A stretch of 64,000 bases of DNA from Candidatus Uhrbacteria bacterium. Lineage in GTDB: Bacteria; Patescibacteriota; Patescibacteriia; 2-12-FULL-60-25. Of this stretch, positions 11,175-58,491 are shown piece after piece. The notes beneath the pieces are model-generated. The model was not told the DNA's origin and made no database searches. It saw only the letters and a list, made by a program, of their open reading frames with translations. The position numbers and the translations under genes are program-made. The first letter of the stretch is position 1; each line of letters starts with the position of its first letter. Location of the stretch: positions 390,327-454,326 of the forward strand of contig JAIOPK010000006.1 in the NCBI GenBank assembly GCA_021413945.1, in the 5' to 3' direction.

Positions 11175-11251
11175 GGCGGGGTAGCTCAGTTGGTTAGAGC
11201 GTGGGACTCATAAGCCCGAGGTCGGCGGTTCAACTCCGCCCCCCGCTACCA
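11175..11251 (+). tRNA. tRNA with CAU anticodon (elongator Met or lysidine-modified Ile2)
   Basis: GGCGGGG acceptor, GCTCAGTTGGTTAGAGC D-arm, CTCATAA anticodon loop, GGCGGTTCAACTCCGCC T-arm and an encoded CCA. Position 1:72 is a G:U pair, so it is not an initiator. Confidence 0.85.
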
Positions 11252-11990: not shown

Positions 11991-12067
11991 CGCGGGGTAG
12001 AGCAGCCCGGCAGCTCGCATGGCTCATAACCATGAGGTCGTGGGTTCAAATCCCACCCCCGCAACCA
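11991..12067 (+). tRNA. initiator-like tRNA-fMet(CAU)
   Basis: CGCGGGGTAGAGCAGCCCGGCAGCTC...CTCATAA...GGGTTCAAATCCC...CCCCGCAACCA. It has a C1:A72 mismatch and close overall resemblance to the bacterial initiator tRNA. Confidence 0.8.
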
Positions 12068-53278: not shown

Positions 53279-54646
53279 ATGAATGCGTCCATCTTCAAAG
53301 CTTACGATATACGCGGTCTCTCCCCGGGAGAACTCGGCGCGGCAGAGGCCGGACGCATCGGCGTGTCATTAGCGAAGCTACATCGACCAAAGAAAGTCGT
53401 GGTTGGTCATGACATGAGGTTGACGTCGACAGAATTGGAGCAAACGCTCATCGACGGATTGAATTCGCAGGGCGTTGATGTCGTGCGCATCGGGCTTTGC
53501 ACGACGCCGATGTTTAATTTTGCGGTTGCGGAGTCGAATGGCGGTTATGACATGGGCATCATGGTTACGGCTTCGCATAATCCGGCCAGGTACAACGGTT
53601 TGAAAATCACGAAAGGCGACAACACATCGATCGGGCAGGGGAGCGGGATGGAAGAGTTACGCGATCTTGCTTGTGGCGGTGAACCGATTCCGCAGTCGAA
53701 CACGCGGGGCGCGGTAAGCGATGACGAGGGACTGCTCGAACGTTACGTCGAAGCGATTTGGTCGCGGAGTAAACTTGAAGGCGGTTTGTCGAATTGGAAA
53801 ATTTCGATCGATGCGGGAAATGGGATGGAAGGAATCGTGTTACCAAAGTTGTCGAAGAAGATCGGCGCGGATGTGCAGGAGCTTTATTGGAAGCTCGATG
53901 GAAATTTTCCAAATCATGAGGCGAATCCGGTAAAGGTTGAGACGCTTGGCGATTTGCAGGATGAAGTGAAATCAAAAGGCTGTGCGTTCGGTGCTGCGTT
54001 CGACGGAGATGGCGATCGAGTTGGATTCGTCGACGAGCACGGCGAGGCGATTCCCGGGGATATCCTGACCGCTTTGTTTGCGAAGGCGATTCTTGCCGAA
54101 CAAAGGGGCGCGACGGTGCTTTATGATCTGCGTTCGTCCAAGAGCGTGAAGGAAGTGATTGAGGAGGCCGGCGGCAAAGCAGAAATGTGCAAAGTTGGTC
54201 ATGCGGGAATCAAACGACAGATGCGGGAGACGGGCGCCGTCTTTGCGGGCGAGCTCTCGATGCATTTCTATTTTTCCGAGTTCGCGAATTGCGAAGCTTC
54301 GGATTATGCGATGCTGCTCCTTATTCGACTCATGCTTCGTGAGGGCAAGCCATTGTCGGAGATTTGGAAACCGCTTGTACGCTACTCGCATTCTGGTGAA
54401 ATCAATTTCGAAGTGAAAGACACAAAAGCCGCGTTAGCACTGGTCGAAGAGCGGTATTCGACCGGATCTGTCGAGGTCTCACATCTTGATGGCGTACGTA
54501 TCGACAGGGGGGATTGGTGGTTCTCACTGCGTGCGTCGAATACGGAGCCGCTGATCCGATTGAACCTTGAGGCGAATGATGCAGCGACGATGAAGTCTAA
54601 AGTCGAGGAGATTCGTGTATGCTTGGCATCTTTGATTCAGGCGTAG
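53279..54646 (+). CDS. phosphomannomutase/phosphoglucomutase family enzyme
   Basis: Active-site loop TASHNPARYNGLK, metal-binding FDGDGDR and a sugar-binding GELSMH motif. Confidence 0.85.
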   Translation: MNASIFKAYDIRGLSPGELGAAEAGRIGVSLAKLHRPKKVVVGHDMRLTSTELEQTLIDGLNSQGVDVVRIGLCTTPMFNFAVAESNGGYDMGIMVTASHNPARYNGLKITKGDNTSIGQGSGMEELRDLACGGEPIPQSNTRGAVSDDEGLLERYVEAIWSRSKLEGGLSNWKISIDAGNGMEGIVLPKLSKKIGADVQELYWKLDGNFPNHEANPVKVETLGDLQDEVKSKGCAFGAAFDGDGDRVGFVDEHGEAIPGDILTALFAKAILAEQRGATVLYDLRSSKSVKEVIEEAGGKAEMCKVGHAGIKRQMRETGAVFAGELSMHFYFSEFANCEASDYAMLLLIRLMLREGKPLSEIWKPLVRYSHSGEINFEVKDTKAALALVEERYSTGSVEVSHLDGVRIDRGDWWFSLRASNTEPLIRLNLEANDAATMKSKVEEIRVCLASLIQA

Positions 54647-55377
54647 GAGGACTTACCGTCGTCAAAGAATTATTGCGACGACATCCGTCGTCCGGATTTA
54701 TTTATTTGGGCGATACGGCCAGAACTCCGTACGGAAACAAATCCGCCGAGACGATTCGACGTTATGCGGTAGAAGATGCGAGATTTTTGGTCGATAAGGG
54801 AGCGACAACGATTCTCGTTGCCTGTAACTCGGTCAGCGCCGTGGCGATGGACGAATTACGGAAAGAGTTTCCGACGATCAAATTCTTTGAGGTGATCACG
54901 CCGGCGGTTTTGTCGGCGACGGGGAAAAAGATTGGAGTAATTGGAACGCGTGCGACGATTGGGTCGGGAGTTTATGAACGTAGACTGAAGGAGCGCGATC
55001 CGAACGTCGAGGTCATTTCGCAAGCGTGCCCACTGTTTGTGCCGCTGGTAGAAGAGAACTGGATCAATAAGCCGGAGACGAAACGCATTGTGCGAACGTA
55101 TCTTGAGCCGATTCGCCGTCAGCAAGTCGATGCGCTGATTCTTGGGTGTACGCATTATCCGCTGCTGACCAAAGTTATTCGTGTATCGCTGCAAAAACGC
55201 GTAAAGATCATTGACTCGCCGTCGGCGCTGATGGATACCGTTGAACGGGAGGCTGCGAGCGAGCTCGTCGATGGAACGCAGAAATATTATTTTACCGATC
55301 CCTCCGCGGCTACGGATGCTATTGCGACGAAGTGGCTTGGGACGATGATCAAAGGAGTGCGCGCAGAACTCGCGTAA
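54619..55377 (+). CDS. murI: glutamate racemase
   Basis: MLGIFDSGVGGLTV, with catalytic Cys motifs (VACNSVS, LGCTHYP). Confidence 0.9.
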   Translation: MLGIFDSGVGGLTVVKELLRRHPSSGFIYLGDTARTPYGNKSAETIRRYAVEDARFLVDKGATTILVACNSVSAVAMDELRKEFPTIKFFEVITPAVLSATGKKIGVIGTRATIGSGVYERRLKERDPNVEVISQACPLFVPLVEENWINKPETKRIVRTYLEPIRRQQVDALILGCTHYPLLTKVIRVSLQKRVKIIDSPSALMDTVEREAASELVDGTQKYYFTDPSAATDAIATKWLGTMIKGVRAELA

Positions 55378-55382
55378 AGAAA

Positions 55383-55418
55383 GCGCCCCGACGAAGTCTT
55401 GATGACTTGTCGGGGCGC
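55383..55418 (-). terminator. intrinsic terminator oriented for the minus strand (ends the candidate ncRNA)
   Basis: GCGCCCCGAC...GTCGGGGCGC is a 10-bp outer stem with an inner AAGTC/GACTT stem. On the minus strand it is followed by TTTCTTTA. On the plus strand no U-tract follows. Confidence 0.65.
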
Positions 55419-55427
55419 GGAGTAGAC

Positions 55428-55783
55428 GGTTCTTCGGATACGGTCAGGCTGTTGGCGCACGGCGCGAGGGATTTCGCACGTCGTGTTGTTCGCCGTTCTC
55501 AAACTGGGGATTTGCGGGACATTCGGATGGCCTGGGATCGGATCGTAGTTACGCTCAACCTCGAATCGCTCCAGCAGCCTCGTGGGGGGGCAGAGGCCGC
55601 GAGAACGAGAGTGTGTTGCCACGTTTTCCGACATGATCACAAACGAGCCTTCTGTCCTGCACGGGGCTCCCCTCGACGGGTTATGAGCCCAATGTCGACT
55701 TAGTCCCCGTCAACCGGCCAGTACAGGGTGGAGGCCCTGGCTTGGCTTTTCCAATCTGCAGCACAAACCGTACCCGAAGAACC
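55428..55783 (-). ncRNA. candidate ~356-nt structured RNA of unassigned class
   Basis: A 16-bp terminal helix pairs the 5' end (GGTTCTTCGGGTACGG, 55783-55768) with the 3' end (CCGTATCCGAAGAACC, 55443-55428). Its single G:U would be a C:A mismatch on the other strand. A promoter is correctly spaced upstream and a terminator lies downstream. Several internal helices and C-rich loops are present. The ORFs in both strands run into murI or the terminator. Confidence 0.5.
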
Positions 55784-55789
55784 AATGAG

Positions 55790-55817
55790 AGTTTACACAA
55801 AGCGCAAAAAGCGTCAA
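55790..55817 (-). promoter_or_regulatory. sigma70-like promoter for the candidate ncRNA
   Basis: On the minus strand: TTGACG (55817-55812), a 16-nt spacer, then TAAACT (55795-55790). The predicted start, about 7 nt downstream, coincides with the first G of the terminal helix at 55783. Confidence 0.5.
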
Positions 55818-55828
55818 TATATGACCCA

Positions 55829-56992
55829 ATGCTTCAAGTCCTGATCTTCCTGCTTGTTTTGTCGGTTCTGGTTCTCGTTCACGAGGCCGGACATTACATT
55901 GCCGCACGCATTTTTGGCGTAAAAGCCGAGGAATTTGGTTATGGCTTCCCTCCGCGCGCCTTGGGCTTCGTCAAGACGGAGCATGGCTGGAAAAAGGTTG
56001 CTGGGCGTGATCGAACGGCATACAAGAACACGGTTTGGTCCTTGAATTGGCTGCCGTTGGGAGGATTTGTTCGATTGAAGGGTGAGTCCGGAGATGGTGT
56101 CGGGGATGCGGATTCGTTCCTGACAAAAACCGGCTGGCAGAAGTTTATTATTCTCTCGGCGGGAGTTGCCATGAACTGGCTGCTTGCGGCGGTTATTTTT
56201 TCCGTAGGTTTTTCCTTCGGCGTACCGGCAGAGGTCGACGGTTTGCCGGCTTCGGCGATCGTGAGCGGTGCACATGTCGAGATTGTGGAAGTTGTCGCCA
56301 AGAGCGCGGCGGAAAGCGCGGGCCTCAAGCAGGGCGATCATGTGGTTACGGTCAACGGACAGGTCGTGAATACCGCGGAGGCGACACGTAGCGCGCTTTC
56401 CGATCAGACCGGAAAAGGACTTGAGCTGACGCTTGAAATCGAACGGGATGGCGCCATGCAAACCCTGCAAGCAAAACCGATCTTTATCGAGGCATTGGGC
56501 AAGCCCGGGCTTGGAGTCGCTTTGGCCAACATCGGCGTCGTCCGATTTCCCGTTCATCTTGCCGTCGTGCAAGGCGTTACGATCACGGCGCAGTACACGT
56601 GGCTCATCATGAACGGATTTGTGAGTTTAGTTGCGGATCTCTTTGGCGATCGCAAGCTTGCGGCGGAAGTTTCCGGCCCGATCGGGATTGCCGTATTGAC
56701 CGGAAGGATCGCAAGCCAAGGTTTTTGGGCACTCATGCAATTCGCGGCTTTACTTTCCCTCAACCTGGCCGTGATCAACTTTCTCCCCATTCCGGCACTC
56801 GATGGTGGACGAGCCGTCTTTGTCATGGTGGAATCGTTGAGACGAAAGCGAAACAATCCGCGCTTTGAAGCGGCGATTCATCAGGCCGGATTTGTCGCGC
56901 TCCTCATCCTTATCTTGCTTGTCACGGCCCAGGATCTGAACCGCTACGGCGGTACGATCTGGAACGGGCTCAAGGGTATTATCGGATTATAA
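55829..56992 (+). CDS. rseP: RIP metalloprotease RseP (site-2 protease, M50)
   Basis: HEAGHY zinc motif in TM1, a PDZ domain and NLAVINFLPIPALDGG. The ATG at 55829 (MLQVLIF) was chosen because the upstream extension overlaps the ncRNA promoter region. Confidence 0.85.
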   Translation: MLQVLIFLLVLSVLVLVHEAGHYIAARIFGVKAEEFGYGFPPRALGFVKTEHGWKKVAGRDRTAYKNTVWSLNWLPLGGFVRLKGESGDGVGDADSFLTKTGWQKFIILSAGVAMNWLLAAVIFSVGFSFGVPAEVDGLPASAIVSGAHVEIVEVVAKSAAESAGLKQGDHVVTVNGQVVNTAEATRSALSDQTGKGLELTLEIERDGAMQTLQAKPIFIEALGKPGLGVALANIGVVRFPVHLAVVQGVTITAQYTWLIMNGFVSLVADLFGDRKLAAEVSGPIGIAVLTGRIASQGFWALMQFAALLSLNLAVINFLPIPALDGGRAVFVMVESLRRKRNNPRFEAAIHQAGFVALLILILLVTAQDLNRYGGTIWNGLKGIIGL

Positions 56993-57000
56993 TAATTTCT

Positions 57001-58035
57001 ATGGACCTCGAACCAACACTACGCGCCATCGGTAATCAGGCACAACAGGCCATCGAATCGGCCAAGACGCTTGAGCAGCTCGAAGAAATCGAGGTGCGTT
57101 TCCTTGGACGAAAAGGGGAGCTGGCCGGTCTCATGAAAGAGATGGCGAGCGTGTCGGCCGAGGATCGGCCAAAGATCGGCGCTTTTGCAAACGAGGTGAA
57201 GATGGATATCGAGAAGGCGATGGAGAAGAAGCGATCGTCGCTCGGTAGCGCGGCCATCAATGCGAAGCTGTCGAATGAACAGGAAGATGTGACGGAACTT
57301 GGAACGCGTCCGCCGGAGGGGCATCTGCATGTTGTAACGCAGGCGATTCGAGAGTTTACGGATATATTCGAGCGCGCGGGATTTCAGCGAGTCCGACCGC
57401 CGGAGGTCGATTGGGATTGGTATGCCTTCGAGTCGTTAAACATGCCAAAGGAGCACCCTGCTCGCGATGATTGGGAAACATTTTTCATGAATGCGCTGTC
57501 GAGCGAGAAGCCGCGGGAAGGACGCATGCTGCTCACTCCGCACACGACGAATGGAACCGCGCATCTCTTAAAAGATCAGAAACCGCCGATCCGCGCCATC
57601 AGCATCGGTAAGACGTATCGCCGACAAATCGACCTCACGCATTTGCCAATGTTCCACCAGTTCGATGGCATGTACGTTGATAAGGGAGTAAACCTGACGC
57701 ACTTGCTCGGGATTATCGAGTACTTCGTAAAAGAATTCTTTGGTCCGGATCGAAAAGTTCGAATTCGCCCGTATCATTTCCGATTTACCGAGCCTTCGTT
57801 TGAAATCGATATTTCGACAGACTCGCGCATGGGAAAGAACGGCTGGCTCGAGCTGGGTGGCGCGGGAATGCTGCATCCGAATGTGATCAAAGCCGCGGGG
57901 CTTGATCCGGAAGAGTATTCGGGTTTAGCTTTTGGATGGGGCGTGGAGCGTACCTATATGATGAAGGAAGGCCTGCAGTTAGACGATATTCGTACCTTGT
58001 ATAAGAACGATTTGCGATTCTTGCAGCAGTTCTAA
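57001..58035 (+). CDS. pheS: phenylalanyl-tRNA synthetase alpha subunit
   Basis: Class II motifs (HPARD, FRFTEPSFE, GWGVERT). Confidence 0.92.
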   Translation: MDLEPTLRAIGNQAQQAIESAKTLEQLEEIEVRFLGRKGELAGLMKEMASVSAEDRPKIGAFANEVKMDIEKAMEKKRSSLGSAAINAKLSNEQEDVTELGTRPPEGHLHVVTQAIREFTDIFERAGFQRVRPPEVDWDWYAFESLNMPKEHPARDDWETFFMNALSSEKPREGRMLLTPHTTNGTAHLLKDQKPPIRAISIGKTYRRQIDLTHLPMFHQFDGMYVDKGVNLTHLLGIIEYFVKEFFGPDRKVRIRPYHFRFTEPSFEIDISTDSRMGKNGWLELGGAGMLHPNVIKAAGLDPEEYSGLAFGWGVERTYMMKEGLQLDDIRTLYKNDLRFLQQF

Positions 58036-58053: not shown

Positions 58054-58491
58054 ATGGATCTTCTTGAAAAACAACTCGCGGAACAGCCAAAGACCAATAT
58101 TCCGGTACAGGCGATTAAAAACGACCATGCCGCGCTTGAGCATGAGGTCTCACAGCTCAAACAACGCTACAAGTGGATGGCGGTGCTCTGGTGCATCATG
58201 TTTATCCTGCTCGTGGTCGGCGCATTGGCACTTGTGTCGATGAATATGTGGGATACGTGGAAGCTTCGCGAAGAGTCGATGAGCTATGGAGCGCGTGTGG
58301 AGAAGCGTATCGACGATACGGCAGTGAACTCACGACGTGATTTGCAGGATCGATCGCTTACGGTCGAACAACGTCTCGATAACTTGATGCGCGACTTTGC
58401 GGACCTAAAATCCGAGATGACGGCGCTGGAGATTAATTTTGAACGTGCCGAGCAGATTTGTACGAATGCGTGTAACGCGGCCCAGAAATAA
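58054..58491 (+). CDS. hypothetical membrane-anchored coiled-coil protein
   Basis: 145 aa with one TM helix (WMAVLWCIMFILLVVGALALV), inserted between pheS and pheT. Confidence 0.5.
   Translation: MDLLEKQLAEQPKTNIPVQAIKNDHAALEHEVSQLKQRYKWMAVLWCIMFILLVVGALALVSMNMWDTWKLREESMSYGARVEKRIDDTAVNSRRDLQDRSLTVEQRLDNLMRDFADLKSEMTALEINFERAEQICTNACNAAQK

Follow-up and report, generated by a model that had tools for sequence, protein, structure and literature searches.

Large structured bacterial RNAs such as OLE, ROOL, GOLLD, and raiA, all of which are in Rfam, are hundreds of nucleotides (nt) long, have many covarying helices, and are encoded by stand-alone genes of narrow range. Mimicry of a transfer RNA (tRNA) within a non-tRNA is known from the thrS operator of Escherichia coli, in which a hairpin with a 7-nt loop copies the anticodon loop of tRNA-Thr and the part of the stem next to this loop; this operator is a cis-acting leader of a messenger RNA (mRNA) and lies beside the gene of its synthetase. 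In this work, a 64-kb stretch of DNA (the window) from Candidatus Uhrbacteria, a member of the Candidate Phyla Radiation (CPR; Patescibacteria), was analyzed, and the gap between murI and rseP was found to contain what is very probably the gene of a structured non-coding RNA (ncRNA) of a new family. This RNA is like OLE, ROOL, GOLLD, and raiA in the features named above, but it matches none of them in sequence or structure, is smaller than most of them, and occurs in one CPR sub-lineage. Its most conserved part, and the only exposed one whose sequence is invariant, is a 7-nt-loop hairpin which likewise copies an anticodon arm. Unlike the thrS operator, however, the RNA is predicted to be a stand-alone molecule (200-360 nt) that has a promoter and a terminator of its own; it is not located beside metG and copies the initiator/Met CAU arm rather than that of tRNA-Thr. 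We estimate the probability that it is a stable, structured, single-copy ncRNA whose body serves as a scaffold presenting an anticodon-arm mimic in trans at about 0.5.

A Predicted RNA Gene With Conserved Signals

Homologous DNA was taken around close relatives of the RseP protein, and the element was found in ten distinct versions, namely that of the window and those of the loci L002, L006, L007, L008, L009, L037, L040, L041, and L043. All ten occupy the murI-rseP gap in the same orientation and have the closing helix (P1) and a U-tailed terminator, and the length of the RNA body ranges from 204 to 359 nt. A first-pass annotation, made from the letters of the window, had proposed an independent minus-strand structured RNA of about 356 nt without an assigned class, and this proposal was supported by the covariation of the ten syntenic homologues and by the lack of a match in Rfam.

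The proposed promoter, TTGACG-N16-TAAACT, is present at the positions given in Table 1 and its hexamers do not vary among the homologues. It matches the consensus at 9 of 12 positions, is the sole sigma-70-like site in 54500-56500, and predicts a minus-strand transcription start at about 55783. In every homologue, the -35 hexamer is about 10 nt from the divergent start codon of rseP; the translation-initiation region of rseP and the promoter of the RNA overlap physically (55800-55830). The proposed 16-bp closing helix with one G·U pair was also recovered. Over the ten homologues, 94.6% of its cells are paired and four of its pairs are changed on both sides, for example from U-A to C-G and from U-A to A-U (L007 and L037). 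The terminator hairpin and its tail were likewise found where the annotation had put them, the terminator stems covary among the homologues, and the U tract is on the minus strand only. A simple terminator scan overlooked this terminator because its stem carries a bulge.

The minus strand was also favored by the folding results. The 413-nt minus-strand sequence folded with -190 kcal/mol and a minimum free energy (MFE) z-score of -7.8, none of 100 shuffles was as good, and the MFE structure was the same as the centroid; the plus strand had an MFE z-score of -4.3 and a poorly defined ensemble. Moreover, the consensus fold has 68 G·U cells vs. 13 A·C cells, and if the plus strand were the RNA, the G·U pairs would be mismatches of C and A. 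The strand of the RNA is therefore the minus strand, and the earlier argument from the G:U pairs of the window was upheld in the consensus fold.

The view that the region is unlikely to be coding was in agreement with our results. No reading frame is open across the homologues, and in L002, L008, L040, and L041 every one of the six frames is interrupted by stops. The indels among the homologues are not multiples of three, and the two open reading frames (ORFs) of the window at this locus have no Pfam match. When the homologous gaps were checked for their substitution pattern, compensatory changes were found and no reading frame was conserved. The locus has the general characters of a structured ncRNA gene, which are a conserved promoter, a conserved terminator, and a covarying fold on one strand.

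Table 1. Positions of the features of the predicted RNA gene in the window.
Feature	Position	Strand	Remarks
-35 hexamer	55812-55817	minus	TTGACG; identical in 10/10 homologues
-10 hexamer	55790-55795	minus	TAAACT; N16 spacer; identical in 10/10 homologues
RNA body	55428-55783	minus	356 nt, from P1 5' strand through P1 3' strand; ~408 nt including terminator
P1 5' strand	55783-55768	minus	GGTTCTTCGGGTACGG = GGUUCUUCGGGUACGG; pairs with 55443-55428
P1 3' strand	55443-55428	minus	CCGTATCCGAAGAACC = CCGUAUCCGAAGAACC; 16 bp with one G·U
P3 5' strand	55758-55751	minus	CAGAUUGG; long-range, closes inner junction
P3 3' strand	55508-55499	minus	CCCAGUUUGA; 5/7 pairs double-changed, 95% of cells paired
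P4/P4a hairpin	55746-55717	minus	GCCA...UGGC around CAGGG-CCUCCA-CCCUG; 7/9 pairs double-changed
P5 arm	55710-55661	minus	ACGGGGA 55710-55704 with GCCCCGU 55667-55661; 93% paired
P5a	55698-55694 with 55677-55673	minus	UCGAC/GUCGA; 100% paired, 3 pairs double-changed; followed by 1-4-nt 5' bulge
Anticodon-like hairpin	55690-55678	minus	GGG-CUCAUAA-CCC (GGGCUCAUAACCC); loop 55687-55681; most conserved element of the RNA
Variable central domain	55514-55660	minus	P6, P7, C-rich-loop hairpin
P6	55660-55653 with 55521-55514	minus	GCAGGACA/UGUCCCGC; opens central domain
P7	55649-55630 with 55544-55525	minus	In central domain
C-rich-loop hairpin	55600-55574	minus	GCGGCCUC/GAGGCUGC; recurs in long forms with compensatory changes
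3' hairpin domain (P8/P9)	55494-55454	minus	Conserved loop GCGAAAUCCC; stems covary
Intrinsic terminator	55375-55418	minus	GC-rich hairpin 55418-55383, then UUUCUUUA; in 10/10 homologues

Covariation Supports a Multi-Branched Fold

A consensus model was built with RNAalifold on six long forms of the RNA. It contains 88 pairs, 39 of which keep pairing despite changes on both sides. When pairs with double-sided changes were counted on the same alignment, 40 were obtained, compared with 8-19 if the partners were slid and 20 ± 3 if the alignment was shuffled. Standard pairs filled 87.8% of the cells vs. 31-46% with the 3' partners slid by 1-3 columns, a figure that is inflated since the fold was derived from the alignment on which it was counted. 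None of 500 shuffles reached the observed value on any of five measures. The number of compensatory pairs is far beyond the controls despite the alignment-derived fold. Furthermore, the MAFFT alignments misplace some helices (P4 and P5 in some runs), so the counts are underestimates.

The modeled fold is multi-branched with two junctions and is enclosed by P1 (13-16 bp) and P3. The hairpin of P4a (55739-55724), which had been proposed from the window, is real and recurs with compensatory changes; the loop of P4/P4a is C-rich, with UCGCCC as the consensus of the homologues. The hairpin proposed at 55600-55574 proved real as well (Table 1). Within the P5 arm lie two internal loops, one A-rich and one G-rich, as well as P5a, the anticodon-like hairpin, and a bulge on the 5' side (AUU). 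Although the nine sequences compared are partly misaligned in this block of P5, P5a, and hairpin, 86.5% of its cells are paired and 6 of its pairs are double-changed. The stem of P9 has 4 double-changed pairs and is 91% paired.

Two pairings of the first-pass annotation had to be revised. What had been given as GACGGG...CCCGUC corresponds to the covarying helix ACGGGGA/GCCCCGU, and CCCGUC belongs to the anticodon-like hairpin and the lower stem. The long-range pairing CGUUCUC/GAGAACG (55607-55601 with 55500-55494) is absent from both the MFE and the comparative fold, and its 5' partner is not complementary in L043. Some details of our own model are also less firm. Its P2 (55765-55761 with 55449-45) is weak. 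In an alternative P2 (55766-55761 with 55662-55657), 97% of the cells pair, but this helix crosses P3, forming a pseudoknot with it, and overlaps P5/P6. The sequence GGGGA in the G-rich internal loop (55672-55668) is complementary to UCCCU in the loop of the 3' hairpin in 9 of 9 sequences, and this loop contact was no better than in shuffled or slid controls. A tRNA-like "cloverleaf" order of the arms was ruled out, as the 3' hairpin is outside P3.

An Invariant Hairpin Identical to Part of the tRNA-fMet Anticodon Arm

The hairpin GGG-CUCAUAA-CCC had been overlooked in the first-pass annotation. Its 13 nt are those of positions 29-41 of the canonical bacterial tRNA-fMet anticodon stem-loop. 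One exact copy is present in the window, and the near matches are the two tRNA-Met genes of the window. Nine of the ten homologues carry the hairpin, and it is unchanged in seven of these nine. In L007, the stem has a compensatory GGC/GCC, with the loop-proximal pair flipped, and in L040 the loop is CUCAUUA. The two loop-distal G-C pairs, which are equivalent to 29-41 and 30-40, are kept in all nine. Three consecutive G-C pairs in the anticodon stem are regarded as the hallmark of bacterial initiator tRNAs, and a CUCAUAA loop closed by three G-C pairs is the one initiator-tRNA feature that was found in the RNA.

The helix P5a, just beneath the hairpin, varies freely and is UCGAC/GUCGA, UUGAG/UUCAA, UCGGA/UCCGA, or ACCGA/UCGGU. 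Because this adjoining helix covaries so freely, the invariance of the hairpin appears, from the sequences compared, not to be merely the result of low divergence.

The likeness to tRNA-fMet (RF00005) is confined to these 13 nt. The RNA has no cloverleaf, acceptor end, D arm, or T arm, and the hairpin has a 3-bp stem and a bulge. No cloverleaf was called at the locus by Rfam or ARAGORN, and an initiator tRNA gene was rejected.

The Element Is Restricted to One Sub-Lineage of Uhrbacteria

The neighboring genes pgm (53279-54646), murI (54619-55377), rseP (ATG at 55829, to 56992), and pheS (57001-58035) are all on the plus strand and are densely packed in an operon-like manner, and the RNA gene is housed in the murI-rseP gap of 451 nt. 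The GC content of this gap is 0.60 vs. about 0.52 in the flanking genes. The RseP of the window has 100% identity with a protein annotated from Candidatus Uhrbacteria, and the genomes nearest to it are metagenome-assembled genomes of Uhrbacteria. Between pheS and pheT, the window has an ORF of about 145 amino acids (about 58054-58490, plus strand) that is kept in all relatives examined and has no Pfam match. The start codon of rseP has no Shine-Dalgarno (SD) sequence upstream. Across the window, GGAGG, AGGAG, and GAGGA were found 4-10 nt upstream of 4-6% of the ATG/GTG starts of long ORFs. Because these SD-type motifs were no commoner than control motifs at this position, the result suggests that SD sequences are little used in this Uhrbacteria genome.

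The body of the RNA is variable in the homologues. L002, a form of 204 nt, is without the whole central region and L006 without part of it. L041 has kept the promoter, P1, the central hairpin, and the terminator, and its 5' domain is unrelated; in its locus, murI is truncated. In this most divergent carrier (809-1078; also L042), whose RseP is 71% identical, murI is an ORF of 89 amino acids without a Pfam match and the anticodon-like domain is lost, so the locus may be decaying or rearranged.

The element was absent in more distant relatives. In L045/L046, with RseP 69% identical, pgm and rseP are 113 nt apart, and in L047-L050, with RseP 61% identical, murI and rseP are 47 nt apart. Four loci were obtained in a genome scan with RseP, of which one has the RNA; L003 and L004 do not. 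Because the more distant relatives are without the element and have a murI-rseP gap of 47 nt, the element is, judging from these loci, lineage-specific and was inserted antisense into a conserved operon. With an nhmmer profile of the ten sequences, each locus, including that of the window, gave exactly one copy, and the rest of the window gave none.

In L004 (Candidatus Uhrbacteria SJ877, RseP 67% identical), murI is absent and the pgm-rseP gap is 205 nt. An unrelated minus-strand unit was observed there (2745-2950). It combines the promoter-like TTGACA-N17-TACGTT with about 150 nt of structured sequence (z = -4.4) and with the terminator CUGUCACCUCCGGGUGGCAG, which has a U7 tail. The equivalent position in this genome may be taken by a different small RNA. 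L002 (CAYZVS010000007.1) and L003 (CAZYKJ010000003.1) are titled "uncultured Gammaproteobacteria bacterium". Their RseP is 74-77% identical to the Uhrbacteria protein and they share the pgm-murI-rseP-pheS synteny with the window, and by these two characters they look like mislabeled Patescibacteria bins.

The JGI metagenomes were scanned with the pattern GGTTCYTCG-N64-92-GGSCTCATAASCC. The scan gave 27 loci with only 3 true homologues, which are duplicates of L002 and L009. In the remaining loci, the 5' motif was matched by chance, and those inspected that have the GGGCTCATAACCC hairpin are genuine tRNA-fMet genes, which were matched because the hairpin is identical to the tRNA-fMet anticodon stem-loop. 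Among these unrelated chance matches, L015, L017, L026, L031, and L033 have the strong promoter TTGACC-N17-TATAAT, a GGTTCTTCG... leader, and then the tRNA-fMet gene; in L017, the sole locus of this group that is long enough, the start of a 16S ribosomal RNA (rRNA) gene follows. No match to the hairpin plus flank was found in viral contigs.

Known RNA Families Were Not Recovered

A scan against Rfam had been suggested in the first-pass annotation as a check. With Rfam 15 at the gathering score, only six tRNAs elsewhere in the window were found. No match was obtained at E<=10 in the segment 55200-56000 (801 nt), nor in the RNA itself at E<=5 when nine homologous loci were scanned. ARAGORN found no tRNA or transfer-messenger RNA (tmRNA) in 55000-56200. 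The earlier argument against tmRNA was borne out by both programs, and the ends of the RNA form the 16-bp helix without a CCA end. 6S RNA was rejected as well, since the consensus is multi-branched with two junctions instead of a rod with a central bubble and there was no Rfam match. No description of such an RNA, and no free-standing bacterial RNA mimicking the anticodon arm of the initiator tRNA, was found in the literature searched. As judged from these comparisons, the RNA is a new class and not a variant of a known one, a previously undescribed family in one Uhrbacteria sub-lineage.

A Possible Role of the Hairpin in Trans

In the mechanism that we prefer, the RNA would be transcribed from its own sigma-70-type promoter, antisense to the pgm-murI-rseP-pheS operon, and would end at the intrinsic terminator. 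Its junctions would carry the C-rich hairpin, the GGG-CUCAUAA-CCC arm, a central domain that varies in length and is dispensable, and the 3' hairpin. The covarying helices would form a scaffold and the hairpin would be the working part, a division that is proposed because the rest of the RNA tolerates the loss of whole domains (L002 and L006). The hairpin would then be offered in trans to a reader of the CAU anticodon loop. That the RNA works through this hairpin, as a mimic of an anticodon arm or as a U-turn recognition loop, is a tentative proposal that we consider somewhat less likely than not.

Three candidate partners can be named. In the small ribosomal subunit, G1338 and A1339 of the 16S rRNA read the G-C pairs 29-41 and 30-40. 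The P site of the 30S subunit with its AUG codon, possibly together with initiation factor 3, would be the preferred partner because the pairs read by these two nucleotides are exactly those kept in the hairpin. A second candidate would be a VapC-type nuclease, some of which cleave tRNA-fMet in the anticodon loop, and a third would be the methionyl-tRNA synthetase. Equivalently, the hairpin may bind an AUG-containing RNA through its U-turn loop. A tRNA decoy for the P site, the synthetase, or the nuclease might tune or shut initiation or protect tRNA-fMet; such a decoy is in our view quite unlikely. A role specifically as a P-site or initiator decoy seems similarly improbable.

Several observations weigh against an anticodon-arm mimic on a stable scaffold. 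The expression and the stability of the RNA are predictions, the former from conserved signals only. The stem of the hairpin is only 3 bp long, compared with 5 bp in a tRNA, and a 5' bulge of 1-4 nt comes after it. In L040, a U is found at the equivalent of purine 37, and L041 is without the hairpin domain yet has kept the promoter, P1, and the terminator. The carriers are all close kin, with an RseP identity of at least 71%, and the shallow divergence of a family of 10 distinct sequences could partly explain the invariance of the hairpin. No gene of a candidate partner (metG, infC, or a PIN toxin) lies beside the RNA. The initiator tRNA of the host (11991-12067, plus strand), which has a C1·A72 mismatch, a CAU anticodon, the same loop, and a stem AUGG/CCAU (CAUGG/CCAUG), has U29-A41 in place of G29-C41. 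With only two of the three G-C pairs in this tRNA, the rule of three G-C pairs may count less in this organism. Finally, a 7-nt YUNR loop is also used by ordinary antisense RNAs, so the likeness may be convergence and not mimicry. The second CAU tRNA of the window (11175-11251) has an A31·G39 mismatch beside the loop.

Other Explanations of the Locus

The 7-nt YUNR loop (CUCA), the C-rich loops, and the antisense orientation are shared with antisense and base-pairing RNAs such as CopA and Sok or RNAIII, RsaE, and 6C. The RNA could be an ordinary trans-acting base-pairing small RNA, whose seeds for start-codon or SD regions would be the C-rich loops and CUCAU(A)A, the loop with the U-turn, as in RNAIII, RsaE, and 6C. 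The unpaired C-rich loops UCGCCC, CCUCCCCCC, and AAAUCCCC are conserved, CUCAU conforms to the YUNR motif of U-turns and has AUGAG as its complement, and the CUCAUUA of L040 breaks the purine-37 rule of tRNAs and retains CUCAU. However, the RNA is far more elaborate than these regulators, its size and its number of covarying helices being above those typical of them, and covarying helices, P3 among them, take up some of the C-rich sequence. Evidence for SD-type targets was not found in this genome; upstream of long ORF starts in the window, GGAGG-like motifs are not above the controls, so that a mechanism directed against SD sequences would have few sites to work on. Nor was UUAUGAG enriched at gene starts, in a search that was uninformative. 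This explanation is unlikely. Alternatively, the RNA could act in cis on the operon that it opposes, controlling rseP-pheS by forming a duplex, cleaved by RNase III, with read-through operon mRNA, to which it is perfectly complementary, or by transcriptional interference, with the fold serving mainly for stability. The tight packing of pgm, murI, rseP, and pheS on the plus strand speaks for such control, and so does the lack of a promoter-like site on the plus strand upstream of rseP. Read-through is plausible, as the terminator hairpin has no U tract on that strand, and the element is always at the same position with its -35 hexamer close to the rseP start. But a cis-antisense regulator needs neither more than 80 covarying pairs, nor a strand-specific excess of G·U pairs, nor an invariant loop, and the insert-free relatives keep the operon with a gap of 47 nt, so the operon needs no such control. 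As the whole explanation it is rather improbable; as a role in addition to the presentation of the hairpin in trans it is plausible.

The insertion of the element into a conserved operon in one lineage, its terminal inverted repeats, and the variable internal content of the homologues could also indicate the relic of a mobile element, of the type of a miniature inverted-repeat transposable element whose terminal inverted repeats measure 16 bp, or some other inserted DNA without a function. Against this, the window and each fetched locus have one copy, the position is orthologous in all carriers, and the substitutions in the "repeats" compensate each other, which keeps them paired. The strong covariation of the internal helices and the conservation of the promoter and terminator also make such a relic extremely unlikely. 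As a last explanation, an RNase P RNA (rnpB) of high divergence was considered. In its length, P1-closed ends, multi-domain fold, and housekeeping-like promoter and terminator, the RNA is similar to RNase P RNA (RF00010, RF00011), neither model of which gave a match in the 801-nt segment of the window (E<=10) or in the nine homologous loci scanned (E<=5). RNase P RNAs of the CPR are so diverged that the Rfam thresholds were dropped to 5 bits and the helices were refolded by hand (PMC8172020). Because CPR RNase P RNAs can evade the thresholds in this way, the missing Rfam match alone is not decisive against RNase P. The weak motif resemblances that had been noted in the first-pass annotation, however, did not withstand the comparison. 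The CR-I-like GGAAAAGCC (about 55750-55742) and the CR-V-like ACAGAAGGCU (about 55655-55646) vary among the homologues, with GGAGCGGCU in L008 and no second motif in L009. Both sit in the covarying helices P4 and P6 of our model. In RNase P RNA, CR-I (GGAAAGUCC...) and CR-V (ACAGAAnCCGGCUUA) form the long-range helix P4, and CR-V immediately precedes the 3' strands of P2 and P1; in the present RNA, the order is wrong for this P4, the second motif is in the first half of the molecule, and there is no P4 pseudoknot and no series CR-I to CR-V. Whole domains are dispensable, so that an essential core is not retained, since L002 is without the central domain and the 5' domain of L041 is replaced. 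Moreover, relatives whose RseP is 61-69% identical do not have the gene at this locus. The probability of an RNase P RNA is accordingly very small.

Implications for the Candidate Phyla Radiation

The CPR makes up a large share of bacterial diversity, and to our knowledge its regulatory and structural RNAs are hardly known beyond rRNA, tRNA, and a diverged RNase P RNA. The present work adds a well-supported new RNA class from uncultured Uhrbacteria, with more than 80 base pairs, half of which covary, and its ten sequences provide a seed alignment for a new Rfam family. Even with an ordinary function, it would be an RNA gene newly inserted, in antisense orientation, into a conserved housekeeping operon. 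If the hairpin truly mimics the anticodon of the initiator tRNA, the RNA would be a new case of tRNA mimicry by a free-standing RNA and would represent a new control of translation initiation or of tRNA-targeting toxins.

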